Positions 9,056 to 35,536 of a stretch of DNA of 56,198 nt are shown piece after piece; the stretch's first letter is position 1; the number at the start of each line of letters is the position of its first letter. The notes under the pieces were generated by a model. It was not told the origin of the DNA. It did not search any database and saw only the letters and a program-made list of their open reading frames with translations. This stretch comes from an uncultured archaeon. GTDB lineage: Archaea > Iainarchaeota > Iainarchaeia > Iainarchaeales > GCA-2688035. The position numbers and the translations under genes are program-made. The stretch lies in contig CAZMUN010000003.1 in the NCBI GenBank assembly GCA_964569815.1, positions 1 through 56,198 of the forward strand. The letters run 5' to 3'.

Positions 9056-9090
9056 TTTATTAAATAGGAAACTATTCTATTAATCAAAAA
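9056..9090 (+). promoter_or_regulatory. Promoter block of giant gene 1 (copy 1 of a duplicated upstream element)
   Basis: TTTATTAAATAGGAAACTATTCTATTAATCAAAAA. It shares TTTATTAA and an identical 16-mer, GAAACTATTCTATTAA (9068-9083), with the region upstream of giant gene 2. The 16-mer ends 32 nt before ATG 9116. Confidence 0.5.
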
Positions 9091-9115
9091 TAACCTTAAT
9101 ACAGGATTGAACAAA

Positions 9116-17789: not shown

Positions 17790-20700
17790 ATGGAATCGCC
17801 TTTGATAGAGAAGGTCGTGGAAAAAATAAAATCAGGCTACTTTTTCCTAGAAGACCGCTACTACGCAGTTTTAGACAAAATAAACAAGCAGGTTCCAATC
17901 TACAAAGTTGTGGACCCCGTTGACAAGGTTGTTCCGTCTTTTTTGGTCCTGGCTGCAATAATCCTGCTTCTTGCACTATTTTTCGTTTTTATTGCCCAAG
18001 CCGCTGTTCCAATGTCTGCCACTTTAAGAGTTGTTGACAGCAAAGGCGAGTATGTTCCAGGCGTATCAATAGAGCTTTCATCAGAAAGCTTTGATTTTGA
18101 CAGCTTTGAAACAGACGAATTCGGCGAAACAATTGTAAGCCTGCCTAGCCCTAAAATAGATGCTGAAGGCACGTTTACCAAAGAAGGATACCTTGACCTC
18201 AAGAGAACGGTTACCTTAAAAGCCAACAAGTCATCTGAGGTAACGCTGCAGCTAAAGCCATCAGATATAGACCTGCAGCCCAAAGACCTCACCATACGCG
18301 TTTACGACAGCAGAACAAACCAGCCAATAACAAAAAAAGTTATTCTGACATTTGAGTGCAGCAGCGGCGCATTCCCACCGGAAAAACAGGAGGGCACAAC
18401 TGGCCAGTTTGAAGTTGTGAAGCCTGCAAACTGCTCTTCCCTTAGCGCGACAGCGGAAGCAGAAGGCTATGCGAAAAGAAGCAAAACCCTTTCATCTACG
18501 ATAAACACCCTTTACCTTTCCTCTGATTCGGCTCCAACTGAAACAACTGGCAGACTAAATGTTCTTGTAAAAGATTCAGGAAACAACCCCGAGCCAGATG
18601 CAACTGTGCGCGTGATAGACGAAACCACGGACTTGGAAACAGACAGCTCAAGCACCGGCGCCAGCGGAAACGCGCTTATATCAAGCCTTCAACCAGGGCT
18701 TTACACCGTTTCAGTGATAACGCCTGACGGCAGAACAGGCCGCGAAACAGGCATTTATGTGAGAGCAGGCCAAACAGAAACCGTTACCATAACGCTGATA
18801 AGCGCTGCCGATGCACTAAGCAAAAAAATATTTCTGGAAGTAAAGGAAGAAGGGCCTCTGGCTGTGATTTCTGAAGTGCAGGTTTTCATTTACGAAAACG
18901 GTGTGATGCTTGACAGCACTTCCTCTGACAGCTCTGGCATAATAAACAAGAGGATAGTTGAACCAGCTGATGGAGCCACTTACCTAGTGGTTTTGGCACA
19001 TCCTGAGTTCATAACAAAAATCGTTGACGACGTTCCATTAAAAGAGCTCTCAGATGACATCCCAATAGCCATTACCATGACCCGCGCCTCGATGGAGGAC
19101 CCGGCAACGAGCAGCGAAATACTCATAACAGTTGTAGATGAAGAAAGGCTGCCTGTTGAAGACGCCCTTGTAACAGTATATGACTCGGAATACCCTGAAA
19201 TTCCCCTCAAAACGCCTCCTGGCAGAACACTGGAAGACGGAACCTATCTTTTAACAAACCTTGCCCCCGACCGCGAGTATTTTGCAAAAGCAAAGGACCA
19301 GGACGGAACATCAGAAGGGCAGTCAGATACAGGCACGACAACAGCAGGCGAAACCCTAAACCTTGAAGTAATGGTAGTATTGGGACAGGGGGACATAGAA
19401 GTGCTTGTCTTTGACGCGGAAACCGAAAACAAGGCGCCAATACCAAATGCCGAAGTGGAGTTCATTGACGCATACGACTTTCCAACCGTTGTAGCAACCT
19501 GCACAACAGGTCCGGAAGGGTCATGCACTTCAGAGCCGATTCCTGCAGACAAATACGTTGTGGTAAAAGCAAAAGCAACAGGCTTTATGCCCGCTTACTC
19601 GGTTTCAAGGGTTGACATAATAAACCGCAACACGGCAGATGTTGAAATAGGCTTGGAGCACGAGTCAAGCATTCCGCCAGGCATAGGCAAAATGGATATA
19701 AGGTTCAGAAGCTTTTGCCAGGACAGGAAATGTGAAAATTCAGCAGACAAAATCGAATCAGACGAAGCAGGAACCTTAACCTATTATGCTAAATTCGAAC
19801 TCATCTTTGCAGAAGATGCATCATATGAAAACACGGTCCAGCACATAAGAGCAGGCCCTGATTCGGAAATAAGCCTGCCTGCGCCAACAGGCTACAAAAT
19901 CAAGCTAATGAACGCCCACGGCCCTCTCTTTACCTCTGCACCCTTATCAAGCTGCTGGAACAACGATCCAGTGGACCCTTTCACGGACCCGGAGGAATGC
20001 GCAACCCAGCTTGACGCAAAGCAGGTAAACATCTACTACCCTGACCTTGAAGGAAAGCAAATCATTCCAGTTGTAGTGGAATTCTCTGTTGAAGCAGGCT
20101 TGGAAGACGGTGAAGAGCTGGAAATGCACTACAAGGCAAAAACAAGCGTTTCGCAAGAAGACTTCTTCACAGAAAACAAGGTCAAATACTTTTTAATTGA
20201 CGAATTCCTTTGCGAGGGCCAAGACATTGCCTGGAGCTTTTCTTTGATAAACCCGGACGAAAGCGAAGCAGTGCTTGAAACAGGGGAAGATGCCGCCAAT
20301 GAATTGGAGGTGAACCAGGGCCACGCCCTTGCATTTGAACTCTACAACTGCAGCAACCAGGACTTTTCATCAGCTGCCTTAAAAGCAGAGGTCCCTGGAA
20401 CAGACCCTGAAGCCATTTCATTCACTGCAGCAGAGCCATACAGCAAGGGGCCAGTAAACGCTTCAGGAGAAGAAACCTTTTCATTTGCAGCAGACACAAT
20501 ACTGGCAGGCCAGCTCCCGTTTTACACAGTGGCCGAAGCCGACTTAACAAACATAGTTTTCAACTTTTCTGGTGCGGGCCGCGCCTCAACCAAAACAATT
20601 CCATTCAGCATAGAAAGCAACCTAAGGCTACGCGTGCCATTTGTTCCAAGCAAGCTTGCCCCCTACAGGCCGGAAAACCTTTGGGGCGAAGTGCAAGATG

Positions 20701-23700
20701 CTTCCCTGAGGACACCTATAGAAAACGCCCACGTCAAATTGGAAATAGACGGCCAGGACCCACGCGATTTCACAACAGGGGCAGACGGCCAGTTTTCGTT
20801 TGAAAGCATCACAGGCCTTGAAGGCCTAAGCGAAGTAACTCTTACGGTAAGAAAAGCAGGCTACAAGACCTTTGAAGAGACAATTCCGATTGGAACAGAT
20901 TCCGGTGCATTCAACCCGGATTTGGAATGCGTTGGCATAGAAAAAAACACGCAACAGGAGTTTTCACTGCACTTTGTAAGAAACAGTACAGTCCAGTCCC
21001 AAATTAAAGACACTTTTGAAGTAGTAAACGGCTGCGATTCCCCGGTCTTAATACGCATAAACTCCGAGCTCAAAACAGACAAGGCAAACGATTTCGCCTT
21101 GGACCCTGACGAAAAAGAAACAGTAACTGTTTATGCAGAAGCCTGGGAAAACCATCCTGACATGACAATAGGGGAATACGGCGTAATGGTGACAGCCAAG
21201 TACACTGCAGACCCTCCTGCAGCGCCATTCTTTGGGCCTCTGGCAACAGCCACGGTTTATGTAACAGACCCGACAAGCTGCTTCAGGCTAGCAGACCCTG
21301 CAAGCCCAGACAACCCTGATTTGATGAAATCAACCTTCAACATCGTTGAGGGGTCAGATGAAGGGCTGATAGTAAACGAATGCTTTGCCTACTTTGAAGA
21401 CCTGAAAATGCCCCGCCTTGACACAGTCCGCGGATATCTTGCAGTGGAAGACATATTCAAGCTAATATTCAACCCGCCGACCAAGCCAGCCGAAACCATC
21501 GGCAAGCAAAAGATTTTTGACCCAAGCAACCCAGGCTTTGGCGGCTCAGGAATGCTTTCATTCAATGCCATTGACAGCGGAGGCTATGTTTTCGTTGAAT
21601 GGGTTGACTTCCTTATGACAGACGGCGCCCACGATTCCGGCGCCAAACACAGGGTTTGGGCACAAACAAACAGGAGCGTTTGGTCAAATGTAACGTCACA
21701 GCTTCCATTCACAGACGCTCACCGCGGTCCAGCTGCGCCATCAAGCCTGCCTCATCCTGTAATAGACAACGAGGGCTGGGTTGACGTTGACACCTACTAC
21801 AAGTACACGCCAGGAGAGCACCCTTATTCTGATTTGCTTACAAACAACCCAATGTGGCAGGGCCAGCACAATGTATGCAACATAAACCTTACAGGCTTTG
21901 AACCAGGGCTCTCAGAATGCTCTGTGCCAAGCTACTTCCAGGGAAATCCAACCGTGCCATACAAAGTTGGTATGAATGCAAGCAAAATAAGGCTTGAGTC
22001 AAGCCAGCCTGCCACAACCAATGTTTCTGCCGCAAGATGGCAGTATATAAGTACCGATGCAGACCACGATGGCATAATAGACTTCACAATGCAGAACCGC
22101 GGCCTGATGGGCGAAACCTACGCGCTTATCGAAGTTGAGGACACCACCGATGTTCAATTTGTGGTTTCAGGCGAGGAACCCTCAAGCGGCATAACCGTCG
22201 CTTGGGCCTTGAGCAAAAGCTGTAACGTTAAGGGCGAAGGGACGGTAAGCCCTATGCCAGGCCCGCTTGTCGCAACACCGGGCCAGGTAATAGCAATGTC
22301 TGTTGATGAAGCCGTTGGCATTGGGTCGCCAGCAGGCGTATTTGATTCTTTGGAAGCAGTGCCTGTAAATGACTTGCTTCCCGAAAATCCAAAAAACATC
22401 TCTGAGGTTACCCTTGTTCTTAACGAAAACCAGGAGCAATTTAAAATAGAGGACCTTTCGCCAGATTCTACAGAAGAAATGGTTTTAATGGTCTACAGCG
22501 GCGGCGCCTGGGAAAGGGTAGGCCGCTTTGATGCTGAAAATACAGGTGCCAAAACCCTGCAATACACAGACATCCTTTCAGCAGAGCTCATCGCACTCGT
22601 AAACAGCACTAATGCCACCGATATGATGGTCGATGACATATTCATGAACTATTTTATAATAAACACTGAAGAAGCGCAGGTAGGTCAAGGCTCGCTTGCC
22701 ATACCCATAGGCGAAATTTCTGCAGAATCCGACATGCCTCCAGACAACACCGGCCTTGAATGCATTCCAGGCACTTCCCTTTACACTTTGTCCACCGACT
22801 CAACAGAAGCAGTGGTTTACTTCAGCGAAAGCAAGAGCCCGACACATTCAGACCCTTACGGCATTTCAGGAGAACAGCAAAGGATTGTCGCAGCAACCTC
22901 TTCACCTGAACAGGCAGGAAACACCCAAACAGAGCGCTTCCATGTAAGGGTTGTGGGGGAAGCGGCAACCCAGTGCATTTCAGAAAGCGGCATGGTTGGA
23001 AGCACGGGCATTGGCTCAAAGCCCCGCGTTCTCTTAGACTGGGACTGGGGTGCAATAACGACAGAAACCTGCAACGAAGCCAATGAAAGCTTTGTTTACT
23101 GTGACCCTGCGCAATTCACTGCCTCTTTAATAAAAAGGCTTGAAGAAATAAGAACGCTTGCAGCGGATGACATTACAGGCAACCTCATGGAAATCAGGCA
23201 AAAACAGCTCTTCAAAGCCTACCTTATAGAAGATGCTTACACCCCTGACTTCAGGAACGACTTTGTTGAGTTCTATGCAAACCAGTTCCTTGTGGATGAA
23301 ATGGCCAACGAAAAGCATCCTTGGGGCAACTACCTTTTAGACCAGGAAAAGCTTGTCTTAAACACCGAGGCAGCCCGCTCTGAGTCAGACCCGCAAGAGC
23401 CTGACATGGTTGGCGCAGGCCTGCATGAAATATACATAGACTTTGACTTTTCAGGCGACCAGTTTGACTTTTTCTACGTAGAGCCCCAGCCAGACGGCTC
23501 AAACCAAGTTGACTTGCTTGCAAACATCACCGTATACATCACCAAGTTTTCCGATCCAGTAATACAAAACCCATTTTACTACCTGCCCTTCAACGGCGAT
23601 GTAGGCAGGGAAGATGGCGTTCTCCAAAGGGAGGGCTATGGCCTTTCATTTGAAAACGATTCCCAGCCATTGATGGTTGTAGGCGACTTAGCCCAAGGGT

Positions 23701-24473
23701 ATACAACTGTTTCGCCAGAGGGAAGCACTGCAAGGAAAACAGTCCTTACTGAAAACATTTCCGACTTCCTTTTCACCAACCTAGAGGAAAAGGGAATGCT
23801 GTTAAAGGTCGAAAACAACCAGAACGAAATAAAGTTCTCGCCTTCGATTGCAACGCCTGTCTTGGCTGAAACCGTTTCCTCTGAAAACAAGGCAGAGGCA
23901 TTCTACAATTTAAGGGACGGCTCAACAGTTGTTTCAGGGCCTGGCACGCTTGCATCCTGGAGCGGTTCCGGCTCTTCAATGAGAATGGACGGCATCTGCA
24001 CCGACTTCCACGACAACAAGCTCAGGAAAAGCATTGCAGACATGCCTGGAAGCGGCTGTGCCTCAAGCGTTGAAGGCTCTTATGGCTTTTCATATGAGCC
24101 AGCACCAAACGACGAAAAGCTTTACCTTGAAACAGTGTTCTATACGCCGGCATCAAGCGCAGTTCACTTGCGAAAATCCTGTGAAAACGAAAGCAACTTT
24201 TATGCGCCTGACGTTGACGGCATACAAAAAACAACCCAGTTGAGCACGCCTATTTCATTAAGCCTTGAAAACTTTGAAACAAGGGTTGTTTCCTTGGATG
24301 ACCTTGTAAGGCTTGTTGGAGACAGCTATATCTGTGTTTCACAGTCCGAAGACAGCCAATACTTTACCTTCTGGTGGAACCCGCAAAGGGTTCAGGAAAA
24401 TCTTGGCCAGGTAAAAGCAGCAATTTCGAACTGGCCTGAACTCGACTGTTCGGGTGCGCTTTCAAGCGAATAG
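17790..24473 (+). CDS. Giant membrane-anchored surface protein 2 (2227 aa), a fused paralogue of the 9116 and 15315 gene products
   Basis: Uninterrupted 6.7-kb ORF. N-terminus MESPLIEKVVEKIKSGYFFLEDRYYAVLDKINKQVPIYKVVDPVDKVVPSF plus the TM helix LVLAAIILLLALFFVFIA. CarboxypepD_reg-like repeats (ATVRVIDETTDLETDSSSTGASGNALISSLQPGLYTVSVITPDGR). C-terminal module shared with the 787-aa protein. Confidence 0.85.
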   Translation: MESPLIEKVVEKIKSGYFFLEDRYYAVLDKINKQVPIYKVVDPVDKVVPSFLVLAAIILLLALFFVFIAQAAVPMSATLRVVDSKGEYVPGVSIELSSESFDFDSFETDEFGETIVSLPSPKIDAEGTFTKEGYLDLKRTVTLKANKSSEVTLQLKPSDIDLQPKDLTIRVYDSRTNQPITKKVILTFECSSGAFPPEKQEGTTGQFEVVKPANCSSLSATAEAEGYAKRSKTLSSTINTLYLSSDSAPTETTGRLNVLVKDSGNNPEPDATVRVIDETTDLETDSSSTGASGNALISSLQPGLYTVSVITPDGRTGRETGIYVRAGQTETVTITLISAADALSKKIFLEVKEEGPLAVISEVQVFIYENGVMLDSTSSDSSGIINKRIVEPADGATYLVVLAHPEFITKIVDDVPLKELSDDIPIAITMTRASMEDPATSSEILITVVDEERLPVEDALVTVYDSEYPEIPLKTPPGRTLEDGTYLLTNLAPDREYFAKAKDQDGTSEGQSDTGTTTAGETLNLEVMVVLGQGDIEVLVFDAETENKAPIPNAEVEFIDAYDFPTVVATCTTGPEGSCTSEPIPADKYVVVKAKATGFMPAYSVSRVDIINRNTADVEIGLEHESSIPPGIGKMDIRFRSFCQDRKCENSADKIESDEAGTLTYYAKFELIFAEDASYENTVQHIRAGPDSEISLPAPTGYKIKLMNAHGPLFTSAPLSSCWNNDPVDPFTDPEECATQLDAKQVNIYYPDLEGKQIIPVVVEFSVEAGLEDGEELEMHYKAKTSVSQEDFFTENKVKYFLIDEFLCEGQDIAWSFSLINPDESEAVLETGEDAANELEVNQGHALAFELYNCSNQDFSSAALKAEVPGTDPEAISFTAAEPYSKGPVNASGEETFSFAADTILAGQLPFYTVAEADLTNIVFNFSGAGRASTKTIPFSIESNLRLRVPFVPSKLAPYRPENLWGEVQDASLRTPIENAHVKLEIDGQDPRDFTTGADGQFSFESITGLEGLSEVTLTVRKAGYKTFEETIPIGTDSGAFNPDLECVGIEKNTQQEFSLHFVRNSTVQSQIKDTFEVVNGCDSPVLIRINSELKTDKANDFALDPDEKETVTVYAEAWENHPDMTIGEYGVMVTAKYTADPPAAPFFGPLATATVYVTDPTSCFRLADPASPDNPDLMKSTFNIVEGSDEGLIVNECFAYFEDLKMPRLDTVRGYLAVEDIFKLIFNPPTKPAETIGKQKIFDPSNPGFGGSGMLSFNAIDSGGYVFVEWVDFLMTDGAHDSGAKHRVWAQTNRSVWSNVTSQLPFTDAHRGPAAPSSLPHPVIDNEGWVDVDTYYKYTPGEHPYSDLLTNNPMWQGQHNVCNINLTGFEPGLSECSVPSYFQGNPTVPYKVGMNASKIRLESSQPATTNVSAARWQYISTDADHDGIIDFTMQNRGLMGETYALIEVEDTTDVQFVVSGEEPSSGITVAWALSKSCNVKGEGTVSPMPGPLVATPGQVIAMSVDEAVGIGSPAGVFDSLEAVPVNDLLPENPKNISEVTLVLNENQEQFKIEDLSPDSTEEMVLMVYSGGAWERVGRFDAENTGAKTLQYTDILSAELIALVNSTNATDMMVDDIFMNYFIINTEEAQVGQGSLAIPIGEISAESDMPPDNTGLECIPGTSLYTLSTDSTEAVVYFSESKSPTHSDPYGISGEQQRIVAATSSPEQAGNTQTERFHVRVVGEAATQCISESGMVGSTGIGSKPRVLLDWDWGAITTETCNEANESFVYCDPAQFTASLIKRLEEIRTLAADDITGNLMEIRQKQLFKAYLIEDAYTPDFRNDFVEFYANQFLVDEMANEKHPWGNYLLDQEKLVLNTEAARSESDPQEPDMVGAGLHEIYIDFDFSGDQFDFFYVEPQPDGSNQVDLLANITVYITKFSDPVIQNPFYYLPFNGDVGREDGVLQREGYGLSFENDSQPLMVVGDLAQGYTTVSPEGSTARKTVLTENISDFLFTNLEEKGMLLKVENNQNEIKFSPSIATPVLAETVSSENKAEAFYNLRDGSTVVSGPGTLASWSGSGSSMRMDGICTDFHDNKLRKSIADMPGSGCASSVEGSYGFSYEPAPNDEKLYLETVFYTPASSAVHLRKSCENESNFYAPDVDGIQKTTQLSTPISLSLENFETRVVSLDDLVRLVGDSYICVSQSEDSQYFTFWWNPQRVQENLGQVKAAISNWPELDCSGALSSE

Positions 24474-24496: not shown

Positions 24497-25549
24497 ATGT
24501 TTCCCTTTTTTTATCTAAACATTCTGGCAGTATGCCTTCTTGGATTTTTCACATCCTACACAGACCTCAAAAAAGGCATTATAAAAAACAAGGCCGTTTT
24601 TCCTGCAATCGCGTTTGCTTTTCTGCTCACTATCCTAAACGGCTTCAGCTTTTACGCCTTTCTATTAAACGGATTGCTTGCATTTGCTTTGGGTTTGGTT
24701 CTGTGGCTTGCTGGCCTTTGGAGTGCCGGAGACGCAAAGCTTTTCCTTGCCTTTGCCCTGCTTTTTCCCTTGAACATGAATCTTTCTTCCCTTTTTCCAT
24801 CTTTTGGAATATTCATTTATTCCTTTGTCCCAGCCTTTGCCCTGCTTTTAGTGCTTGTTCTCCTCAAAACAAGCTCGAAACAAAAGCTTGATGCCTTGAA
24901 AGAGGCCTTTAAGCCAGGCCTTGTGCTGTCAGTGGCAGTTTTTCTTTTCGCTTTCTACTGGATTCTGGAAAATATGCTGGTCTTTTTTGCAATTCAACTG
25001 GATTTTCTATCCCTTTCATTGCTTTTGTTCCTAATTGTGTCGTTTGTTGAATTCATTCTTCCCAAAAAGTCTGTTTACTTCTTTGCCCTAGTTTCAGCGG
25101 CCTTTGCCTTCATAGAATTTGAGGAAATCCTGACGCCTTTCTTCATTGGCTTTTTTCTCTCATTCCTGCTCATAGTTCTGGTCGTGCTTTTTTTTGTCCT
25201 AAGGCTTGGCTTTGCCTGCTTTGGAAAAGAAAAAAGGCTTTCAGATTTAAGGCCTGGAATGGTTTTGCTTGATTCCATTGTTTTCCGGGGAAAAAGGCTT
25301 GAAAAAAAAGAAGTTCTTCTTCCGTCCTTTGTAAACATTTTTTCGAAAATAAGGGAAAAAAAGGCAGTGGAAACAGGCCCAAAAGGCCTAAGCCAAAAAG
25401 ACATCTCTTTCCTAAAAAAACAGCAAAAGAAAGGCCTTCTTGCATTTGAAACAGTTTCAGTGCAGGAAACACTGCCCTTTGCCCCCATAATTTTTATTGG
25501 AACCCTTCTTTTACTTCTCTCCTACCTGCTTCCATTCTCTCTGTTTTAA
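24497..25549 (+). CDS. A24-family aspartyl peptidase (prepilin/preflagellin peptidase-like) with a C-terminal extension
   Basis: Polytopic membrane protein. First catalytic Asp lies in SYTDLKKGIIKN (D23, codon 24563-24565). Second lies in the GxGD-type motif WSAGDAKLF (D79, codon 24731-24733). An extra Lys-rich soluble segment and a terminal TM helix follow from about residue 240. GAGG lies 6 nt upstream of the ATG, and the gene starts 23 nt after the giant gene stop. Confidence 0.8.
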   Translation: MFPFFYLNILAVCLLGFFTSYTDLKKGIIKNKAVFPAIAFAFLLTILNGFSFYAFLLNGLLAFALGLVLWLAGLWSAGDAKLFLAFALLFPLNMNLSSLFPSFGIFIYSFVPAFALLLVLVLLKTSSKQKLDALKEAFKPGLVLSVAVFLFAFYWILENMLVFFAIQLDFLSLSLLLFLIVSFVEFILPKKSVYFFALVSAAFAFIEFEEILTPFFIGFFLSFLLIVLVVLFFVLRLGFACFGKEKRLSDLRPGMVLLDSIVFRGKRLEKKEVLLPSFVNIFSKIREKKAVETGPKGLSQKDISFLKKQQKKGLLAFETVSVQETLPFAPIIFIGTLLLLLSYLLPFSLF

Positions 25550-25583: not shown

Positions 25584-25907
25584 ATGGGAGAAAAAGACAA
25601 CTTTGAAACAGATGAAAAGCAAAGCCTTGTGCTTGTTTCAGTCAACCCCAAAATATTCTCCCTGCCAGTCATTTTTTCGGCAGCCTACTGGATGATGGAC
25701 AAGGCGTTTGTAGTAATAGACGGCAGCCCGGAAACACAAGTTGTGGTTTCATTAAGGCCGAGAAAAAACCAAAAGCTTGAAGAGCTTGCAAGGCTTTTCA
25801 ACGACGAACTCTTAAACTATGCTGTCAACGCAGAAGAAACCAAAAAAACGGAATCCCTGAGAAACGAGCTCATAAAACAGGCCTTTGCAGGCCACTCAGG
25901 CAAATGA
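25584..25907 (+). CDS. HxsD-like small protein (His-Xaa-Ser system accessory protein family)
   Basis: 107 aa from ATG 25584. Pattern VLVSVNPKIFSLPVIFSAAYWMMDKAFVVID ... LFNDELLNYAVNAEE resembles the HxsD family, whose model name I recall as chp_LLNDYxLRE. Located next to the radical SAM pair and the HxS-repeat peptide. Confidence 0.6.
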   Translation: MGEKDNFETDEKQSLVLVSVNPKIFSLPVIFSAAYWMMDKAFVVIDGSPETQVVVSLRPRKNQKLEELARLFNDELLNYAVNAEETKKTESLRNELIKQAFAGHSGK

Positions 25908-26164
25908 TTAAAATGAGGCAAATAACCCTTGACAAAAAGAAAAACACCGCATTCCTAGACCTCAACAGCTTTTTCTACCCCAGGCATCTTCTTCAGTTTG
26001 CCAAAGCCGAGTTTTCAAAAAACGCGCAAATATCCTTTTCACAGGAAAACGGCCGCACAAAAGTTGAAATCAAACCCAAAGGGAAAGCCAGCGCAGAGGA
26101 AACAGCACTGTACTTCTGCAACTATGCTCTGGGCTTGAAGCAGGAGTTTGGAGACCATGCCTGA
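25904..26164 (+). CDS. Second, shorter HxsD-like small protein (tandem paralogue)
   Basis: 86 aa, with an ATGA overlap on the upstream gene. Same layout as the previous protein (FLDLNSFFYPRHLLQFAKAEF ... VEIKPK ... ALYFCNYALGLKQE). Confidence 0.5.
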   Translation: MIKMRQITLDKKKNTAFLDLNSFFYPRHLLQFAKAEFSKNAQISFSQENGRTKVEIKPKGKASAEETALYFCNYALGLKQEFGDHA

Positions 26165-27551
26165 AACCAAAGCCAAACAAATGCCAAAATTCCAAAAAAA
26201 CAAGTTTTTTTTGCACAAGCTGGCAAACGGAAAAAATCTGCTTATAACAGAACTCGGCAGGTTCACAGCCCTGACAGGCCAGGAATTCCAGCAATTCCAA
26301 AAAGGAAGCCTTTCCAAAGAGCTGTTCAAAAAACTTGAGGAAAGCCACCTCATTGCAACAGAAAAGAACAAGCCAAAAATGGTTTCAGATTATAGGACAA
26401 GGTATGGCCATGCAGGGGAAGGAATTTCCCTTCATATAGTTAACCCGAGCATGAAATGCAACCAAAACTGCCTTTACTGCTATGCAAACGCACAACCTTT
26501 GGAAAGAAAAGGCTTTGACCTAGACCAAAAGACTGCAAAAAAAATAGTTGACTTCATATGGCAGACCCCCAGAAAAAACCTTGTAATAGAATTCCAGGGA
26601 GGCGAGCCCCTGGCAAACTTTCCTGCAATAGAATACATCGTAAACTATGCAAAAACAAAGAAGGGAAAAAAAGTGCACTGGCGCATTGTCTCCAATCTTT
26701 CCCTAATGGACGACACAATTGCATCCTTCTTCAAAAAAAACAAGGTCCTTGACATCTGCACCTCCCTAGACGGCCCAAAAAACGTCCATGACAAAAACCG
26801 GCTCCTAAAAGGGGGCAGTAGCTTTGACAAAACAGTTGAATGGATTAAAAGGCTAAAACAGGACCACGACTTTGAATACGTTGGAGCGCTTTGCACCGTA
26901 ACCAAACACAGCCTCCCCTATGCAAAAGAAATCGTTGACCAATACCTTGAATTGGGGCTGCCTGACATAACGCCTGTTCCACTGAGAAAAATAGGCCGTG
27001 CCGCCAAAAACTGGGAAAAAATCGGCTACCAAGGCCATGAATACCTTAGCTTTTGGAAACAAGCATTGGAATACTGCCTTCAAAAAACCAGGGAAGGCAA
27101 AAAAATAAGCGAGCAGTTTTCAGTCATGATGCTGGACAAAATGAACAAAGTGAGGCCAAGCTACCACACCTGCTTTTCAAAGCCATGTGGAGCAGCATTA
27201 ATGCAGTGCAGCTATCAGCCCAACGGCGACATATACACATGTGATGAAGCAAAAGCAGAGCCAATCTTCAAAATCGGGGACATTGAGCAGAGCTATGAAC
27301 AGGTGTTCACCTCGCCAGAAGCCCTGAACATGGTTTCCATTTCCTCCTCTTTGGGCTTTGCATGCAACGAATGCCCCTTCACAGGCTTTTGCAGGATATG
27401 CCCTGTAATGCTTTACTGCACTCAAGGAAACCTTGTTCCAAAGCTTTCATTTGATGAAGACTGTAAAACCAAAAAAGCCCAGTTTTCTTACCTGCTTGAA
27501 AAGCTTTTCGGGCCAGACAAAGACATTTTAAGGGAATGGCAAGGCAAATAA
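26157..27551 (+). CDS. Radical SAM / SPASM-domain peptide maturase, HxsB-like
   Basis: ATG 26157, with GGAG 10 nt upstream and an 8-nt overlap on the upstream gene. CNQNCLYC cluster, GGEPL, and a SPASM-like CSYQPNGDIYTC ... CNECPFTGFCRIC. An N-terminal extension of about 90 aa (FFLHKLANGKNLLITELGRFTALTGQEFQQF) is the kind of element seen in peptide-binding maturases. Confidence 0.8.
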   Translation: MPETKAKQMPKFQKNKFFLHKLANGKNLLITELGRFTALTGQEFQQFQKGSLSKELFKKLEESHLIATEKNKPKMVSDYRTRYGHAGEGISLHIVNPSMKCNQNCLYCYANAQPLERKGFDLDQKTAKKIVDFIWQTPRKNLVIEFQGGEPLANFPAIEYIVNYAKTKKGKKVHWRIVSNLSLMDDTIASFFKKNKVLDICTSLDGPKNVHDKNRLLKGGSSFDKTVEWIKRLKQDHDFEYVGALCTVTKHSLPYAKEIVDQYLELGLPDITPVPLRKIGRAAKNWEKIGYQGHEYLSFWKQALEYCLQKTREGKKISEQFSVMMLDKMNKVRPSYHTCFSKPCGAALMQCSYQPNGDIYTCDEAKAEPIFKIGDIEQSYEQVFTSPEALNMVSISSSLGFACNECPFTGFCRICPVMLYCTQGNLVPKLSFDEDCKTKKAQFSYLLEKLFGPDKDILREWQGK

Positions 27552-27586
27552 TTAAAAACAAGAAAAAGCTATTATATGCTGTTATT

Positions 27587-27814
27587 ATGCCAAAAATGCC
27601 TGAAGTAAAAAAAACCATTTCTTCCTACCTCTCGGAGGAAAACGGCCGAATCACAAAACACACTGTTTTAACACTTGGCGCGATAATGGCCGCATCGGCC
27701 CTGGCCTCAATACACTTCAGGAACGCGGCAGCTCAAACCAAGCACAAGCACACCCACATGTCTACCAGGCCGCCTCCGCCCCATGCCTCACACGGCTCAC
27801 ACGGCTCATACTAA
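27587..27814 (+). CDS. His-Xaa-Ser repeat precursor-like peptide (HxsA-like), 75 aa
   Basis: MPKMPEVKKTISSYLSEENGRITKH, then the hydrophobic helix TVLTLGAIMAASALASI, then a His-rich tail KHKHTHMSTRPPPPHASHGSHGSY containing HMS, HAS, HGS and HGS. The 9-nt unit cacggctca occurs twice in tandem (27791-27808). ATG 27596 and the track start 27536 are alternative starts. Confidence 0.6.
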   Translation: MPKMPEVKKTISSYLSEENGRITKHTVLTLGAIMAASALASIHFRNAAAQTKHKHTHMSTRPPPPHASHGSHGSY

Positions 27815-28854: not shown

Positions 28855-29550
28855 TCATTCAAAAAAGAAAAGGCAGTGGTATTCCTCGTTTTCATTTTTT
28901 GCAATGCAGCCGTTCACATAAACAGGCACTGCAGCAAAACAGTGCTCTGAGCAGTGCTCAACGCATGCCCCCAAATTCTGGGAAACGGCCCTTTTCGCTG
29001 CCTCCAAATCTGTCTCTGCGGGCTCCATTCCGCAGAACTGCTTTGCCTCAGTAAAATGCCCTATGTCGCAGCTGTCATTCCAGTTAACTTCCGCTTCCAA
29101 GGCACCAAGGCTCTGGCAAATGTTCGCGTTAACATTTTCAGCACCGGCTTCGCAAACCGAGCCAAGCTCATCCAAACCATTTATGCCAAGCTTGTATTTC
29201 AAAACATTGAGCTGGGTGTCGGCTTCCTCTAGGGAAGCTGTCTGAAAAATGCTTGCCTTTTCCACAAACCCTTGCCTTTGCCCAAAACTCATGTAGCTCT
29301 CCCTGAAAAAATCCTTCTTTATCCACAAAAGCTTTTGGAGCCTTTCAAGGCCAGCCATATCCAAATCCTGGCCCTGAAGCTTTTCTATTTCCGCGTCAAG
29401 AATTGCCTGGTTTGCAGGCTGCAAAAAGCCAGGGTAAGGCCTTGAAAGCCGCTCTTCCAGAAAAACCCTCTCCAGGTTAACTGAAAGCCAGACAAGGCCG
29501 GCAATAAACACGATCAAGGCCGCTGAAACCATTGCATTCTTTGCCTTCAT
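28855..29550 (-). CDS. N-terminally anchored Cys/His-rich protein (hypothetical)
   Basis: TM helix MVSAALIVFIAGLVWLSV. Nine Cys in the last ~100 residues, including CVEHCSEHC. No family recognised. Confidence 0.55.
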   Translation of the reverse strand: MKAKNAMVSAALIVFIAGLVWLSVNLERVFLEERLSRPYPGFLQPANQAILDAEIEKLQGQDLDMAGLERLQKLLWIKKDFFRESYMSFGQRQGFVEKASIFQTASLEEADTQLNVLKYKLGINGLDELGSVCEAGAENVNANICQSLGALEAEVNWNDSCDIGHFTEAKQFCGMEPAETDLEAAKRAVSQNLGACVEHCSEHCFAAVPVYVNGCIAKNENEEYHCLFFFE

Positions 29551-29745: not shown

Positions 29746-31035
29746 TCAACCTTGGCTAAAAAATTTTCTTGCAACCGCGTCGTAGAACAAAATCCCTTTG
29801 CTGCCAAGCTTGACCTGCCTTGAATTTACTTCAATAAGGCCAAGCCTTTCAAGCAAAGCCATTTTTTCGCCAAAGGCTTCCTCAAGCCCCAAGCCAAACT
29901 CTTTCCTGAACCAGGCCTTTTCAACACCGGAAGCGTTCTTAAGGCCCAAAGCCATTGCTCTTTTCATCCTCTCCCTCAAAGAAAGTTTTTTTCCGTTTAC
30001 CACTGCAAAGCCTTTTTCTTCAAGCTGCCTGAAGTAATCGCTTGTTGGAAAATCGTTGTTGTAGTCCCATTCCAAAAAATAGGAGCAGCTGCTTGCTCCA
30101 AAGCCAAGAATTTCTCCGTTGTGCCACTGGTTTTCCAAAAAAGCCATCCTAAAACCGGGCTTGACAAACTGGTAGGGAAAGGACATCTCATAGCCCAAAG
30201 AAAGCATTTTTTCAACGAACATTGAATGCATTTCAACCAATTCAGATTCAGAGGCAAAGCTTTCCCTCGGCATTGAAAAAAACCCAGTGCCCTTCTGTAC
30301 CCGCAAATCCGAAGCGGTAACAGATTCAGGCTGCAGCTCTTCAACAGCATCCAAAGTTTTATTCCAGCCGCCAAGGCCCTGCTTTGGCAGGCCGTAAATC
30401 AAATCTATGTTGACATTGTCAAAGCCGGCATTCCCTGCATCTTCTACAGCCTGAAAAGCCTGCTTCCTGCTGTGGTTCCTGTTGCACGCCTTCAAAACAA
30501 TGTCGTTAAAATCCTGTATGCCAATGCTGAGCCTGTTGAACTCCTGCCTCAGCATGCTCATCTTTTTCACATTCAGTGTTTCAGGGCTTGACTCAATTGT
30601 GGCCTCACACTTTCCCAAAGAAAAAACCTGCTTCAAAAAGCCCATAAGGCCATTCAGCTGCCCTGCTTCCAAAAAGGTAGGCGTGCCGCCTCCAAAAAGC
30701 ACGCTGCCAGCAGCAAGCTTTGGCTTCAAAACCTGGCTGTATGAAACCATTTCCTTCTGCAAGGCCCTAAGGTAAGCCTCGGTTTCCTTTTCTGATGCAG
30801 GAAGCTGCTTGAAGTAATGGCAATAGCTGCAGATGCTTGTGCAGTAAGGCAAGTGCAGGTAAAAAGCGGTTTTTGCCTCTTTTCTTGAATCCTTTTTCAG
30901 GTCGGCCAAAAAGGAATCAAAGTCAAGTGAAGGCATGCTGTCAGATTCAGGGAACCGGTAAACAAACCTGTGGTCAACGCTTTTCTCAATGCCTGCCTTG
31001 TGAAGCCTTTTCATCCCCTTTTCATCTAAACCCAT
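29746..31035 (-). CDS. HemN/HemW-like radical SAM protein (oxygen-independent coproporphyrinogen oxidase family)
   Basis: 429 aa. HLPYCTSICSYCHYF cluster, the family-typical GGGTPTFL, and a C-terminal HemN_C-like region. Confidence 0.85.
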   Translation of the reverse strand: MGLDEKGMKRLHKAGIEKSVDHRFVYRFPESDSMPSLDFDSFLADLKKDSRKEAKTAFYLHLPYCTSICSYCHYFKQLPASEKETEAYLRALQKEMVSYSQVLKPKLAAGSVLFGGGTPTFLEAGQLNGLMGFLKQVFSLGKCEATIESSPETLNVKKMSMLRQEFNRLSIGIQDFNDIVLKACNRNHSRKQAFQAVEDAGNAGFDNVNIDLIYGLPKQGLGGWNKTLDAVEELQPESVTASDLRVQKGTGFFSMPRESFASESELVEMHSMFVEKMLSLGYEMSFPYQFVKPGFRMAFLENQWHNGEILGFGASSCSYFLEWDYNNDFPTSDYFRQLEEKGFAVVNGKKLSLRERMKRAMALGLKNASGVEKAWFRKEFGLGLEEAFGEKMALLERLGLIEVNSRQVKLGSKGILFYDAVARKFFSQG

Positions 31036-31095: not shown

Positions 31096-32058
31096 ATGAA
31101 GATTCTTTCGCCTCTCTGCAAAACAGAAGAAGTGAAGCCTTTGGCAGAGGCAGGGGCAGACGAATTCTACTGTGGCATTGTGGCAAAAGAATGGGAGAAG
31201 CGCTTTTCCTACATTGCCTCAATAAACCTAAGGCATGACAGGGTTGCAAACTTTCAAAGCCATGAAGAGCTCTCCAAAGCAGTTCAGACAGCCTCTGACT
31301 TGAAAAAGCCAGTTTTCTGCGTATTCAATGCGCCCTTCTATTCTGAGAAACAGCTGCCGCTGGCCCAAAAAGAGGTTTCCAAGGCAGTGGAAGCAGGCGT
31401 TTCCAAAATCATTGTTTCAGACATTGGCCTGATTTCAATGCTGAAAGAACAGGGCTTTGAAAAAGAAATCGCTTTGAGCACGGCTTTTCCTGCCTTCAAT
31501 TCGGCTGCCTTCCCTTTCTTCAAAAGCCTTGGAGTAAAAAGAATCGTGCTTCCAAGGCACCTTTCAGTGCAAGAAATTGTGGGCCTTGCCTCAAAAGCAA
31601 AAGAGCAAGGCCTTGAGCTTGAGGCCTTTGCACTTAACGCCTTGTGCCCTTACATTGACGGCCTTTGCACACTGCAGCACGTTGGAAAAAGCCAGCAAAG
31701 CCTTTCAACAAAAGAGCTTGCATGCAGGATGCCCTTTGAAACAAAAACATTCCCAAAAAACCAAGTGGCTTCTGCCCTAAGGGCCAAAATATGGCAAGAA
31801 ACTTTGACCACAAGCTGTGGCCTTTGCGCACTGCCCTTTTTTGAAAAAGCCGGCATACATTCTCTCAAAATTGCTGGACGTGCAAACCATTTGGAAAAAA
31901 AGCTCTCAGACGTTAAGGCAGTAAAAAAAGCCCTTGCGCTGATACCAAAGCTTTCAGAGCAAGATTTCAAGGAAGAAATGAAGAGGCTTTTCTTCAAAGA
32001 AAACCACCAAAGGTGCGATTTCAAAAGCTGCTACTACCCTGAGGAGGGCATGCAATGA
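31096..32058 (+). CDS. U32-family protein (peptidase U32 / UbiU-RlhA-TrhP-type Fe-S hydroxylase family)
   Basis: N-terminus MKILSPLCKTEEVKPLAEAGADEFYCG is typical of U32. LEAFALNALCPYIDGLCTLQ is close to the U32 signature ExFxxG[SA][LIVM]CxxxxGxCx[LIVM]S as I recall it. Confidence 0.8.
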   Translation: MKILSPLCKTEEVKPLAEAGADEFYCGIVAKEWEKRFSYIASINLRHDRVANFQSHEELSKAVQTASDLKKPVFCVFNAPFYSEKQLPLAQKEVSKAVEAGVSKIIVSDIGLISMLKEQGFEKEIALSTAFPAFNSAAFPFFKSLGVKRIVLPRHLSVQEIVGLASKAKEQGLELEAFALNALCPYIDGLCTLQHVGKSQQSLSTKELACRMPFETKTFPKNQVASALRAKIWQETLTTSCGLCALPFFEKAGIHSLKIAGRANHLEKKLSDVKAVKKALALIPKLSEQDFKEEMKRLFFKENHQRCDFKSCYYPEEGMQ

Positions 32059-32843
32059 CCAAAAAGGCAGTAGCGGTTGAAACACTTTCAGGCCTTGAAA
32101 AAATTTCCCAAAAAGGGCTTTCAAGGCTCTACTTTGGGCCTGAAACCTGTGAAAGAAAGCTTCCCTCTCTCCAAGAATTGGAAAAGGCAAAGGCCGCCTG
32201 CAAAAAAAACGACCTGGCTTTTTCTTTGATGACGCCTTTTGCAACAGACGCAGGCATAGAAAGAATAAAGCCCCTGCTAAAAGCCCTTTCCCCGGAAGAC
32301 GAACTAATTGTAAACGACTTCGGGGTCTTGCAGCTTGCTTCCCAAACAAAGGCAGAGCCTGTCTGCGGCCGGCTTTTGAACAAGCAGTTCCGCGACCCAA
32401 GAATTGCTTCCTTTCAAGCTTCCAATGAAATGCTTGAACACCTTTCACTCAGCCAGGCTTCAACCAAAGGGTTTAGGAAAACCCTTTCAGAATTTGGGGT
32501 CAAAAGAGTTGAGCTTGACAACCTGCTTCAAGGCATTGCCACAAGCCTTTCCCAAACAGGGTTTTCTGCTTCGCTTTATACGCCTTTTGTGTTTATTTCC
32601 GCTACCAGAATGTGCCTTGCATGCAATTCAAAAAAGCTTTCAGACTACAAGAAGATAGGGGTATTGAATTGCGGCAAAGAATGCCTTTCAACACATTTTG
32701 AGCAGACCAACAAGGCCTTTCCAAGGCCATTGCTTGTCTTTGGAAACGCGCTCTTTTTCGAAAACCCTTCCTTGCCAAACCAGGAAAGCCTCGAAGAAAA
32801 GGGAATAAACAGGCTTGTCTGCAACAATTCGCTAAAGCTTTAA
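32055..32843 (+). CDS. Second U32-like subunit (UbiV-like partner), translationally coupled
   Basis: ATGA overlap with the upstream gene, and GAGGAGGG 6 nt upstream. An N-proximal Cys (PETCERK) plus a C-proximal cluster CLAC-x15-CGKEC. TIM-barrel-like U32 N-terminal pattern (LYFGPETCE). Confidence 0.6.
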   Translation: MTKKAVAVETLSGLEKISQKGLSRLYFGPETCERKLPSLQELEKAKAACKKNDLAFSLMTPFATDAGIERIKPLLKALSPEDELIVNDFGVLQLASQTKAEPVCGRLLNKQFRDPRIASFQASNEMLEHLSLSQASTKGFRKTLSEFGVKRVELDNLLQGIATSLSQTGFSASLYTPFVFISATRMCLACNSKKLSDYKKIGVLNCGKECLSTHFEQTNKAFPRPLLVFGNALFFENPSLPNQESLEEKGINRLVCNNSLKL

Positions 32844-32870: not shown

Positions 32871-33614
32871 CTACAAAAAAAGTATTAATGCAATCAGTAC
32901 TGCAAGCAGAACCAGGCTTAGCCAAAAGCCAGGCCTTCTCATGATCTCGGGAAGCCGGCTTTTGCTTTCCTTGTGTGTTGAAAGCTTTTCCCCTGCAATT
33001 GCAGCAATCTCCTTGCTGTACTTCAGCCAAGCCCCAGGCTGCTTCAGTTCCTCCAACGTTTCCCTAGTTATTTCAACAAAGCCTTTCTCTCTTTCAGGAA
33101 CCTTTTCCTCGCCAAACACATCCCCGGAAACAGCGCTTATTTGCAACTGGTAGGTCTGCTTTGCAACGGTTACAAAAGCAATCCACATAGGGTAATAAAT
33201 CATTTCGAAGCCGGTTAAAACAATGTCTTCCCTGCCAACGGAAAGCATTGAAGCTGCCTTAAGCAAGGCAATCTTTTTTGCTTCCGGTTCCGAAAAAAGC
33301 GGTTTTCTCGCAATCAAGGGGTATTTGTCCGGAAGCTCTCTTACAAGCTTTGCATCGTCAGGAATCGAGTCAGCAAGCTCTTTGCCCAATTCAGCGGTTT
33401 CCCCGTTCAGGGCCAGCCTTCCCCTCTCGGTTTTCCCCTTTTCTTTGCCCTGCAATGCTGCGTCATAGTAAAAGAGGTAAAATGGCGTAAGAACAAGCTT
33501 TATTTCCCCTTTTTCAAACTTGCTCCATTTCCTTTCCCTGAGAGCCTTTTCAATTATTTCAGCCGCCTTTTCAAGCTGGACAGAAATCGGGAAAACAGGC
33601 TTGGCTACAAACAT
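32871..33614 (-). CDS. Tail-anchored hypothetical protein with two internal beta-rich repeats
   Basis: Repeat 1 is IKLVLTPFYLFYYDAAL...RGRLALNGETAEL. Repeat 2 is FEMIYYPMWIAFVTVAKQTYQLQISAVSGDVFGE. C-terminal TM helix FWLSLVLLAVLIALILFL. Confidence 0.5.
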   Translation of the reverse strand: MFVAKPVFPISVQLEKAAEIIEKALRERKWSKFEKGEIKLVLTPFYLFYYDAALQGKEKGKTERGRLALNGETAELGKELADSIPDDAKLVRELPDKYPLIARKPLFSEPEAKKIALLKAASMLSVGREDIVLTGFEMIYYPMWIAFVTVAKQTYQLQISAVSGDVFGEEKVPEREKGFVEITRETLEELKQPGAWLKYSKEIAAIAGEKLSTHKESKSRLPEIMRRPGFWLSLVLLAVLIALILFL

Positions 33615-34310: not shown

Positions 34311-35534
34311 TTGGCAGAGCAAAGCTTTCAGCAGAACATTTTTCAAAGGCAGCTTGAAAAAAGCACTGTTTTTCGCGACAGGAGCGCGATAACACCGCAT
34401 TACACTCCGGAAAAGCTGCCCTTCAGGGAAAAACAAATAGAGGAAATAACGCAGGTTCTTTCCTCGGCTTTGCAGGCCGCAAAGCCGGACAACTTGTTTA
34501 TTTACGGCAAGGTCGGCACAGGAAAAACGGTTACAGTAAACCATGTCTTGGGCCAGCTCAAGGAATTCATTTCCCAGAACAACAGCAAAACAGTGGACTT
34601 TGCTTACGTGAACTGCCGAAATCATAACACGAAATACAAGTCCATTATCAAGTCCTTGGCGAAATTTTTTCCAAAAGAGGACTTCATTGGCTACAGCTCT
34701 GCTTTTGTCTACGAAAAGCTTTTGTCTCATGCAGAGAAAGGAAAGCAGGTTTTGCTTGTATTGGATGAAATAGACAAGGTCAAGGATTTGGATGAGCTAA
34801 TATATGCTTTGACTAGGGCAAACGACGAGCTGCAGCATGGCGGCATCTCAATAATCGGCATAAGCAACAACCTTTTCTTCAAGGACAAGCTGGATGCAAG
34901 AACAAAAAGCGCTTTGCTTCAGCGGGAAATGGTTTTTCCGCCGTACAATGCCTCTGAATTGAAAGAGATTTTGAAAGGCCGTGTTGAGATGGCTTTCAAG
35001 CCCCATGTTGTGGAGGAGTCTGCAATAAGCCTTGCTTCTGCTGTTGCAGCCCAGGAGTCAGGGGACGCAAGGGCTGCAGTAATGCTTCTTTTAAGGGCTG
35101 GTGAGGAAGCCGACAAAAAGTCTTTGGAAAAGGTTTCAGATGTTCTGGTTAGGGTTGCCAAAACCCGCGTTGAGGAAGAGGTAACCTTGAGCATGGTTGA
35201 AACCCTGCCCAAACAGCAGCAGCTCGTGCTTTACAGCATTTCTTTGATGACATTGCAGGGCCATGGATATGGAAGATTAAACGGCCAAAAGGAAAAAGGA
35301 GTCTTTTTCTCAGGGGACGCCTACCGCGAATACGAGCGCGTTGCTTTAGGCATCGGCGAGCAGGCTGTTTCAAGCAGATGGTTTAGGGAATATGTGAATG
35401 AACTGGAAACATATGGCCTGCTTTTGACAACTGCCTCTGGAAAAGGAGTCCGCGGCACCACGACTCTGATAAGATTGGGCTTTGATGCCAAAAAGCTTTT
35501 GCAGGCCCTTGAAAAAGAGCTAATGGTTGGCTAA
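34311..35534 (+). CDS. orc1: Orc1/Cdc6 replication initiator
   Basis: AAA+ Walker A (IYGKVGTGKT) and Walker B (LVLDEID), with a C-terminal winged-helix region. TTG start 7 nt after AGGTGG; there is no nearby in-frame ATG. Confidence 0.92.
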   Translation: MAEQSFQQNIFQRQLEKSTVFRDRSAITPHYTPEKLPFREKQIEEITQVLSSALQAAKPDNLFIYGKVGTGKTVTVNHVLGQLKEFISQNNSKTVDFAYVNCRNHNTKYKSIIKSLAKFFPKEDFIGYSSAFVYEKLLSHAEKGKQVLLVLDEIDKVKDLDELIYALTRANDELQHGGISIIGISNNLFFKDKLDARTKSALLQREMVFPPYNASELKEILKGRVEMAFKPHVVEESAISLASAVAAQESGDARAAVMLLLRAGEEADKKSLEKVSDVLVRVAKTRVEEEVTLSMVETLPKQQQLVLYSISLMTLQGHGYGRLNGQKEKGVFFSGDAYREYERVALGIGEQAVSSRWFREYVNELETYGLLLTTASGKGVRGTTTLIRLGFDAKKLLQALEKELMVG

Positions 35535-35536
35535 GC

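Follow-up and report, generated by a model that had tools for sequence, protein, structure and literature searches.

What a 75-codon open reading frame (ORF) ending in a run of His-Xaa-Ser triplets encodes, and which of the genes around it act upon its product, is the question raised by positions 27587-27814 of the forward strand of contig CAZMUN010000003.1, where the frame lies between two genes for radical S-adenosylmethionine (SAM) enzymes. The DNA analysed was the stretch of 56,198 nucleotides from position 1 of that contig, referred to below as the window. In bacteria, HxsA, HxsB, HxsC and HxsD of the His-Xaa-Ser (HXS) system block the entry of phage DNA (Li et al., Nat Commun 2026, PMC13128918). 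The answer favoured here, to which we would give a probability of about 70%, is that the ORF specifies the ribosomally made, HxsA3-type precursor of an archaeal HXS maturation system, the tail of which would be modified and exported and the leader of which would be cut by a peptidase of family A24 encoded in the same cassette.

The ORF is a real, conserved gene. A metagenomic search of 5.8 billion proteins yielded 17 close homologues with E values of 1e-14 to 1e-32, nearly all of them 72-75 amino acids (aa) in length. A hidden Markov model (HMM) of the family, searched exhaustively against 1.84 billion cluster representatives, matched 1,074 of them at E<=1e-3, of which 406 reached E<=1e-10, with alignments that begin at the N-terminus; the superfamily clusters, about 1,000 in number, are defined at 50% identity. 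Codons varied between loci and the residues were kept. The window encodes the DNA polymerase D subunits DP1 and DP2 (PolD), Cdc6/Orc1, a Hel308-type helicase and NOG1, and is archaeal by virtue of its PolD, Cdc6 and archaeal helicase genes. The nearest genome locus to the cassette was that of a Candidatus Iainarchaeum metagenome-assembled genome (MAG) of the DPANN group (Nanobdellati), and the host is an archaeon close to Candidatus Iainarchaeum. Those relatives of the peptide that carry names came from MAGs of Diapherotrites and Woesearchaeota.

For the surrounding genes, 43 metagenome loci recovered through the leader pattern, with a leader-only alignment as the query of the scan, and a further 16 recovered by exact protein look-up were compared after mapping by ORF calling and HMM and BLAST searches. 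Around the peptide gene, the cassette comprises the following.

24497-25549, forward strand: FlaK-like A24 (prepilin-type, two-aspartate) membrane peptidase, 350 aa, PF01478; first gene of the cassette
25584-25907, forward strand: HxsD, 107 aa, TIGR03976
25904-26164, forward strand: small HxsD-like protein, 86 aa, NF038315 HxsD_rel
26148-27551, forward strand: HxsB-type radical-SAM/SPASM peptide maturase, 467 aa, TIGR03978
27866-28846, forward strand: second radical-SAM enzyme, 326 aa, with the motif CNFDCGFC and a partial SPASM/twitch domain, Pfam Radical_SAM

HxsB and the second radical-SAM enzyme were classified by BLASTP or phmmer against reference sequences, the bacterial HXS reference families being TIGR03976-03979. 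HxsB matched TIGR03978 with an E value of 4.3e-108, against 1e-36 for the next family, and was 31% identical over 448 aa to the annotated HxsB of Methylobacter (BLASTP, E 5e-73). Pfam Radical_SAM and SPASM domains were both present, and the closest solved structure was 5wgg, which we take to be CteB. The start of HxsD was set at the ATG at 25584, the ORF list placing it at a TTG at 25497. Homologues of HxsD at four loci (L001, L003, L008 and L010) carry the Pfam domain PF27806 HxsD, and the sequences AYW and LFNDELLNY in the window protein partly match the motifs LYW and LLNDYxLRE of Escherichia coli HxsD (PMC13128918). The smaller HxsD-like protein passed the NF038315 cutoff of 41 with 41.7 bits (E 9.6e-11), and an ORF of 66-113 aa matching the iterated HxsD profile holds the same position in nearly all cassettes.

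A leader-bearing peptide stood beside HxsB and HxsD in 27 non-redundant loci, directly downstream of the HxsB maturase. The order on one strand was A24 peptidase, HxsD, HxsD-like protein, HxsB and peptide, and this was retained in L001, L003, L006, L008, L010 and about 20 metagenome loci in which HxsB is only 36-42% identical to that of the window. A first-pass annotation made from the DNA letters had proposed a precursor-type peptide and suggested looking for small ORFs beside HxsB-like genes; the proposal is borne out by this conservation beside homologous maturases and by a conserved leader joined to a hypervariable core. The peptide thereby has the make-up general to precursors of ribosomally synthesised, post-translationally modified peptides (RiPPs), namely a conserved leader and a variable core encoded beside a modifying enzyme.

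Membership of a family is equally apparent. The window peptide aligned nearly end to end with the NCBIfam model HxsA3 (NF038309), residues 4-74 against model positions 2-75 of 81, and all 32 diverse relatives matched the model (best E 1.3e-31), so the window peptide is placed as a divergent HxsA3 subfamily. TIGR03979 (HxsA) matched two of the 32, weakly. In comparison with other HxsA3 peptides, the core of the Iainarchaeota type is shortened, lacks the H-[TS]-N...HHxSH spacer and has only two or three tandem units. Among the close homologues, conservation was highest along the N-terminal leader and through the first half of the hydrophobic stretch: the segment G20-I33 is almost invariant, with G20, R21, I22, T23, K24, T26-L28 and L30-I33 invariant, followed by H53, H55, H57, S59 and the terminal H-x-S-Y. 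Across the superfamily, P5, G20, I22, G31 and H57 are invariant. The conserved part is thus the N-terminal 31 residues and the variable part the C-terminal His/Ser tail. Gly31 was kept in 185 of the 188 retrieved members that contain the G-x-I-x-K motif, and the last residue was Tyr in 78 and Trp in 45 of the 188 (together 123).

Profile searches showed that distant members share the leader PEIKKTISSFLxEEEGKI[TS]KQS..xG and have very different cores. These include (HxS)n runs that reach about 11 units, one (Hx[ST]) run with 23, extended (HxT)n arrays and Cys-rich or Gly-rich cores; very long (H-[AS]-T)n arrays, Cys-rich or Gly-rich cores follow the leader at L023 (9974-10594), L048 (9914-10669), L025 and L058 and in proteins P0047, P0060 and P0062. 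The variety of cores behind one leader implies that the leader family serves several core chemistries. Some members are fusions. In P0060 and P0062 the precursor lies behind an N-terminal HxsD domain, and at L024 (9980-10837), L037 (348-1184) and L044 (1867-2700) and in P0064 the leader and HxS region are joined to a C-terminal Hint/intein-like domain (CCFPAGT...HN), an arrangement that suggests release of the modified peptide by self-cleavage. A scan of viral contigs found no copies of the leader.

The peptide itself, its parts and the element before it are as follows.

27552-27562, forward strand: TTAAAAACAAG element, 25-35 nt upstream of the peptide ATG
27587-27814, forward strand: HxsA3-like precursor peptide, 75 aa, from translation and homologues
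27587-27661, forward strand: peptide leader, residues 1-25, of net positive charge
27662-27712, forward strand: hydrophobic segment, residues 26-42, with the invariant Gly31
Residues 43-75, forward strand: His/Ser-rich core ending in HGSY
27787-27808, forward strand: perfect tandem repeat of period 9, 2.4 copies, encoding S-HGS-HGS (Tandem Repeats Finder, 100% match)

Translation of 27587-27814 gives MPKMPEVKKTISSYLSEENGRITKHTVLTLGAIMAASALASIHFRNAAAQTKHKHTHMSTRPPPPHASHGSHGSY before the stop codon. The four H-x-S triplets of the first-pass annotation (HMS, HAS, HGS and HGS) were found again, as were the charged leader of 25 residues and the hydrophobic stretch of 17; its spacing of eight residues between HMS and HAS was wrong, the spacer being the six residues TRPPPP, and the last 24 residues hold six histidines where seven had been counted. 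Nothing beyond the hydrophobic, export-like segment and the four triplets was recognised in the 75 aa, and Pfam gave no match. Ala, Gly, Ser and Thr abound in the hydrophobic stretch. Its Kyte-Doolittle mean is 1.67 over 19 residues or 1.91 over 15, which puts it at the transmembrane threshold and makes it comparable in hydropathy with the Sec signal of a small HxsA from bacteria. An AlphaFold2 model built on the family alignment placed helices at residues 5-17 and 24-49 ahead of a disordered tail.

In the ORF list, the frame extends upstream to an ATG at 27536 (92 aa), overlapping the stop of the preceding gene at 27551. This start was rejected, the extension being missing from 15 of the 17 close homologues, which begin at MPKFPE or MAKFPE. 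Translation likely starts at 27587, since the starts of the homologues agree and the TATA-like TTAAAAACAAG lies downstream of the 27536 ATG; the apparent conservation of the extension is attributable to conservation of that DNA motif. The sequence TTAAAAACAA was invariant across seven related loci while the flanking intergenic sequence varied. Given its spacing of 25-35 nt from the ATG, the element is likely an archaeal TATA box with its B recognition element (TATA/BRE), from which the precursor would have a nearly leaderless transcript of its own. A scan of the cassette for promoters and terminators of bacterial type, a method not applicable to archaea, returned none beyond shuffled expectation.

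Two exact tandem copies of cacggctca (27791-27799 and 27800-27808) encode the last two triplets, as had been read earlier. A recent expansion of this unit was discounted, unit number and peptide length both matching those of the homologues in the window clade, where the peptides are of the same length and have two or three tandem units (HSS-HSS-HGS). The exactness of the repeat is weak evidence that the gene is real, because one or two point changes are all that separate it from the homologues. Expansion and contraction by slippage, which the first-pass annotation had considered, is supported only in part: length and unit number are constant within the window clade, whereas across the superfamily the Hx[ST] run varies from 0 to 23 units. 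In one sister clade, a clean 18-nt duplication separates L035 and L038 from L022.

The second radical-SAM enzyme matched Pfam Radical_SAM with 74 bits and SPASM with 18.6 bits, below the cutoff, and its best NCBIfam matches were generic (NirJ2, PqqE, MftC and the N-terminal half of viperin), with weak full-length alignments to PqqE and MftC. The HxsC model was not among the 25 best NCBIfam matches. Identity as HxsC was rejected after BLASTP against annotated HxsC gave an E value of 0.043 over the Cys motif alone. Identity as viperin was likewise rejected; the PADLOC pVip matches covered the generic N-terminal half only, and the NCBIfam viperin score was 75 bits against a cutoff of 180. Only Iainarchaeota-like loci have this gene immediately behind the peptide, with identities of 47-64%; the additional radical-SAM genes of other lineages, frequently more than one, are of other kinds.

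The A24 peptidase gene of the cassette was missed by the first-pass annotation, together with the HxsA3 membership of the peptide and the fact that the downstream enzyme is not HxsC. In the protein, a PF01478 domain is present, as are two catalytic aspartates, of which the second lies in a motif resembling GxGD. The PF01478 match was borderline (26.7 bits against a cutoff of 26.5), and the archaeal C-terminal domain Arc_PepC (PF06819) scored 22.6 bits against 23.4; among cassette homologues PF01478 was matched by 11 of 14 (best E 2.9e-9) and Arc_PepC by 9 of 14. The residues D23, D79 (in the motif AGDAKL) and PFA 327-329 were invariant in 14-17 cassette-linked homologues, and homologues named in the sources are given as preflagellin peptidase FlaK, CpaA or prepilin peptidase. 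A search of the Protein Data Bank sequences with the A24 profile gave no meaningful match. A same-strand A24 gene was found in 19 of the 23 non-redundant loci with enough upstream DNA, ending within about 190 bp of HxsD in 17 of these 19, and the link holds where HxsB is only 36-42% identical to that of the window. At L013 and L032 the gene is directly upstream of the peptide. The reciprocal test gave the same result, A24 homologues of 30% identity (P0252 and P0255) lying directly upstream of HxsD, HxsD-like and radical-SAM genes; one of these loci, L061, has the leader peptide as well. A more distant homologue, P0258, sits in the classical arrangement among Class_IIIsignal pilin genes, and no such pilin genes were seen in the HxsB-peptide cassettes, unlike the control locus L062. 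The link of the A24 peptidase to the cassette is robust and apparently unreported. The literature searched made no mention of HxsA3, HxsA4 or an A24 link, and in a search for 'prepilin peptidase' with radical-SAM or RiPP the phrase was not found, with zero occurrences in a review of RiPP leader proteases (PMC10885120).

Taken together, these features would fit the following sequence of events. The precursor would be transcribed from its own TATA-like element, and in the cytoplasm its conserved leader (PEIKKTISSYxSEExGRITK) would be bound by HxsB, by the two HxsD-type proteins or by both. HxsB would then modify the H-x-S tail covalently, most probably close to its almost invariant C-terminal end, H-x-S-Tyr/Trp, in parallel with the modification on the last HxS repeat of E. 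coli HxsA; in the Iainarchaeota-like lineage the second radical-SAM enzyme may act on the tail as well. The moderately hydrophobic segment would target the peptide to the membrane with its N-terminus inside and its C-terminus outside. The A24 aspartyl peptidase possibly cuts the N-terminus of the exported peptide, at a non-canonical site for which the invariant Gly31 is the best candidate, and what is released or exposed at the cell surface would be a short modified peptide, basic and rich in His, of some 26-44 residues.

An exported or membrane-inserted fate, as the first-pass annotation had it, is plausible given the signal-peptide-like hydropathy, the co-conserved A24 peptidase and the export of bacterial HxsA (PMC13128918). 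As to function, our leading guess, by analogy with bacteria, is a surface barrier against incoming viral DNA. A wider proposal can be framed only tentatively, and we hold it at rather less than even odds: that DPANN archaea possess a large, hypervariable family of exported, radical-SAM-modified peptides, the leaders of which are removed by a dedicated A24 (GxGD) intramembrane aspartyl peptidase, with HxsB and HxsD as the minimal maturation core in the absence of HxsC, and with antiviral surface defence as its possible purpose.

Several observations weigh against this interpretation of the cassette. Scores against the reference families fall short: the window peptide reached 34.6 bits with NCBIfam HxsA3 (E 1.2e-8) against a cutoff of 65, so that annotation pipelines would leave it without that name; HxsB scored 362 bits, just under the equivalog cutoff of 370; and HxsD scored 48.6 bits with TIGR03976, just below the cutoff of 50. 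No A24 gene was visible in 4 of the 23 informative cassettes, the second radical-SAM enzyme is not kept outside the close clade, and several leader-bearing peptides are orphans without a cassette. The AlphaFold2 model is of low confidence, with a mean pLDDT of 63. The classical class III signal motif, a charged residue followed by Gly or Ala and then by hydrophobic residues, was taken in a FlaFind-type form as [KRDE][GA][ALIFQMVED][ILMVTAS]x3 where the hydrophobic stretch begins. The window peptide and 182 of the 188 relatives lack it, the pattern being matched anywhere in the N-terminal region by only 6 of the 188; any cleavage of the peptide by the A24 enzyme would therefore be non-canonical. 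Lys or Arg was never found at position -2 relative to Gly31, and at -3 in 71 of 185 members. An A-x-A sequence at residues 47-49 could serve signal peptidase I instead. To our knowledge, archaea also lack the peptidoglycan and the periplasm on which the bacterial mechanism depends.

That A-x-A sequence is the basis of the alternative that survives best, which we regard as unlikely: the peptide would be an HxsB substrate with an ordinary Sec-type signal, signal peptidase I would cut after residues 47-49 to release QTKHKHTHMSTRPPPPHASHGSHGSY, and the A24 enzyme would serve pilins or giant surface proteins. Nearly all 17 close homologues indeed retain the small Ala49 at -1 and, at -3, a residue that is small or aliphatic (NAAAQT, SASAET, EVSAQT), many distant members have an A-x-A just ahead of the conserved H-[TS]-N motif, and the bacterial small HxsA has a classical Sec signal. 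The missing class III motif would also be accounted for, and several cassette loci are flanked by giant surface proteins. The n-region of 25 residues is, however, the most conserved part of the protein, unlike that of generic Sec signals, and two basic residues separate the hydrophobic core from the A-x-A. The persistence of the A24 gene beside cassettes with HxsB identities as low as 36-42%, and directly beside the peptide at L013 and L032, also speaks against a separate client, as does the lack of Class_IIIsignal pilin genes in cassettes in contrast to L062. The N-termini of the giant proteins show no obvious class III site.

Very unlikely, in our view, is an uncleaved, membrane-anchored His-rich peptide (N-terminus in, C-terminus out) that captures or delivers Ni, Zn or Cu at the surface, the radical-SAM enzymes tuning its ligands or being unrelated to it. 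The six histidines of the last 24 residues do fall into H-x-H-x-H and H-x-x-H, classical spacings for metal binding; the modelled helix of residues 24-49 is long enough to cross a membrane, and the Kyte-Doolittle values lie at the threshold for transmembrane segments. A simple metal-binding role leaves it unexplained why the Ser of H-x-S is conserved along with the His, as is the terminal aromatic residue, which is Tyr or Trp in 123 of the 188 relatives. Behind the same leader, sister precursors carry cores rich in Cys or Gly or made up of H-x-T, a variety that fits a family of maturase substrates better than a single metal site, and searches with Pfam and NCBIfam found no metal transporter genes in the cassette. 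The sole experimental precedent for such repeats is that of E. coli, where both phage defence and the binding of DNA depend on them (PMC13128918); it points to DNA and not to the metal binding that the first-pass annotation had suggested.

That the frame is a chance, untranslated one in the spacer between two radical-SAM genes is barely conceivable, its shortness (75 aa), the want of a Pfam match and the lack of accession or name for the copies that a cluster look-up placed on NCBI genomes being outweighed by residues conserved across loci with diverged DNA and differing codons, a large homologous superfamily with a match to NCBIfam HxsA3, a fixed position and strand after HxsB and the conserved promoter-like element upstream.

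The reading of the ORF as an HxsA3-type precursor invites comparison with the bacterial system. Bacterial HxsA is exported, processed at its N-terminus and active in the periplasm, and its last HxS repeat acquires 8 Da in a manner dependent on HxsB, HxsC and HxsD (PMC13128918). The archaeal cassette resembles this system in the HxsB-family radical-SAM/SPASM enzyme encoded beside its substrate, in a probable HxsD-family small protein and in a substrate that has an N-terminal export-type hydrophobic segment and tandem HxS units near a C-terminal Tyr, as in the small HxsA of Methylobacter, which ends in ...SHSSHSSHSSHVSSRY; by analogy, N-terminal processing of the archaeal peptide would be expected. 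It differs in having no HxsC, its second radical-SAM enzyme being unrelated to that protein, and in having two HxsD paralogues and an A24 peptidase. The substrate, unlike bacterial HxsA with its signal peptide, peptidoglycan-binding domain and approximately five HxS repeats, has no peptidoglycan-binding domain, and it carries a long conserved leader in place of a plain Sec signal. Of known HXS systems, 99.7% occur in Pseudomonadota and 99.6% are arranged as HxsD-HxsB-HxsC-HxsA (PMC13128918), whereas the genes here run A24, D, D', B, A and then the other radical-SAM enzyme, in a DPANN host. PADLOC 2023 has no model for the HXS system, and NCBIfam HxsA3 (NF038309), HxsA4 (NF038313) and HxsD_rel (NF038315) are database-only families. 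The archaeal system is clearly a distinct variant related to bacterial HXS and not categorically new, since NCBIfam already models the peptide family and the system is a relative of the characterised one.

Two other kinds of system share features with the cassette. Archaea use class III signals for surface proteins other than pilins. As in the class III systems of FlaK, PibD and EppA, a peptidase of FlaK architecture (A24 domain and Arc_PepC) is encoded beside a small protein, and like class III substrates the peptide has a charged N-terminus followed by a hydrophobic stretch containing an invariant Gly. Unlike class III signals, it lacks the canonical motif, its leader of 25-31 residues is highly conserved and the hydrophobic stretch after Gly31 spans only about 11-14 residues; the arrangement of the cassette also differs from that of a true pilin-type locus such as L062. 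With mycofactocin (MftA/B/C), pyrroloquinoline quinone (PqqA/D/E, PQQ) and SCIFF/CteB, the archaeal system has in common a short precursor with a nearly invariant last residue, Tyr or Trp, a SPASM-type maturase and small accessory proteins. It is set apart from mycofactocin and PQQ by scores far under the family cutoffs (58-65 bits against 265-381), by the lack of a detectable MftB/PqqD-type RiPP recognition element protein and by a product predicted to be exported, unlike a cytoplasmic cofactor.

The HXS system was shown to be a bacterial anti-phage barrier only in 2026 and was reported as nearly confined to Pseudomonadota; in the window, DPANN archaea are seen to have a sister system, the precursors of which form about a thousand diverse clusters in metagenomes. 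Should the proposed model of the cassette be right, the conserved catalytic core would narrow to HxsB and HxsD, HxsC being dispensable in the archaeal system, and substrates of 75 aa would be far easier for chemistry than the 214-aa HxsA of E. coli. A pilin-type A24 enzyme acting as leader peptidase, which was not found reported for radical-SAM peptides in the literature searched, would represent a new route of leader removal and a new use of the pilin-processing machinery, as against a classical RiPP protease or signal peptidase. Organisms of almost unknown cell biology would gain a candidate surface or defence function.

Many cassettes encode, after the peptide, a protein of 230-300 aa that usually crosses the membrane once and has a Cys-rich ectodomain (L001 8269-9060; L007 8426-9217 and 9833-10624; L008 8368-9132; L014 1696-2424; L015 5838-6536). 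The window has no such gene, and no similarity could be detected among the copies. At the Woesearchaeota locus L007, two such pairs of peptide and partner stand in tandem with no HxsB nearby. In the window, a 231-aa ORF with an N-terminal hydrophobic helix (28855-29550, reverse strand) has no homologue in any related locus and occupies the place at which relatives have an NHL-repeat protein of 660-680 aa. Downstream of the cassette lie a HemN/HemW-like radical-SAM enzyme (29746-31035, reverse), a U32 (UbiU/TrhP-like) peptidase-family protein (31096-32058, forward) and two proteins of about 250-260 aa without a family match (32055-32843, forward, and 32871-33614, reverse), all four syntenic in all close relatives at about 55-67% identity. 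A stand-alone radical-SAM gene of 340 aa (8092-9114, reverse) was also present. The window has at least four radical-SAM genes and many related loci have 5-9.

Directly upstream of the A24 gene is a membrane-anchored surface protein of 2,227 aa (17790-24473, forward), with paralogue-like neighbours at 9107-13582 and 15315-17678. Its relatives carry CarboxypepD_reg repeats, and it is conserved in L001, L003, L006, L018 and L022; other giant proteins lie near the cassettes of L008 and L013. The contigs of L005 (DAOWAC010000116.1) and L006 (JAFCCH010000004.1) share synteny with the Iainarchaeota cassette, their proteins being 60-70% identical, yet carry Chloroflexota and Thaumarchaeota MAG labels, which are probably binning errors. 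A scan of the window for tRNAs found none. The Cdc6/Orc1 gene adjoins those for the small and large subunits of DNA polymerase D at 34311-40455, a cluster that confirms an archaeal chromosome and possibly marks a replication origin nearby.

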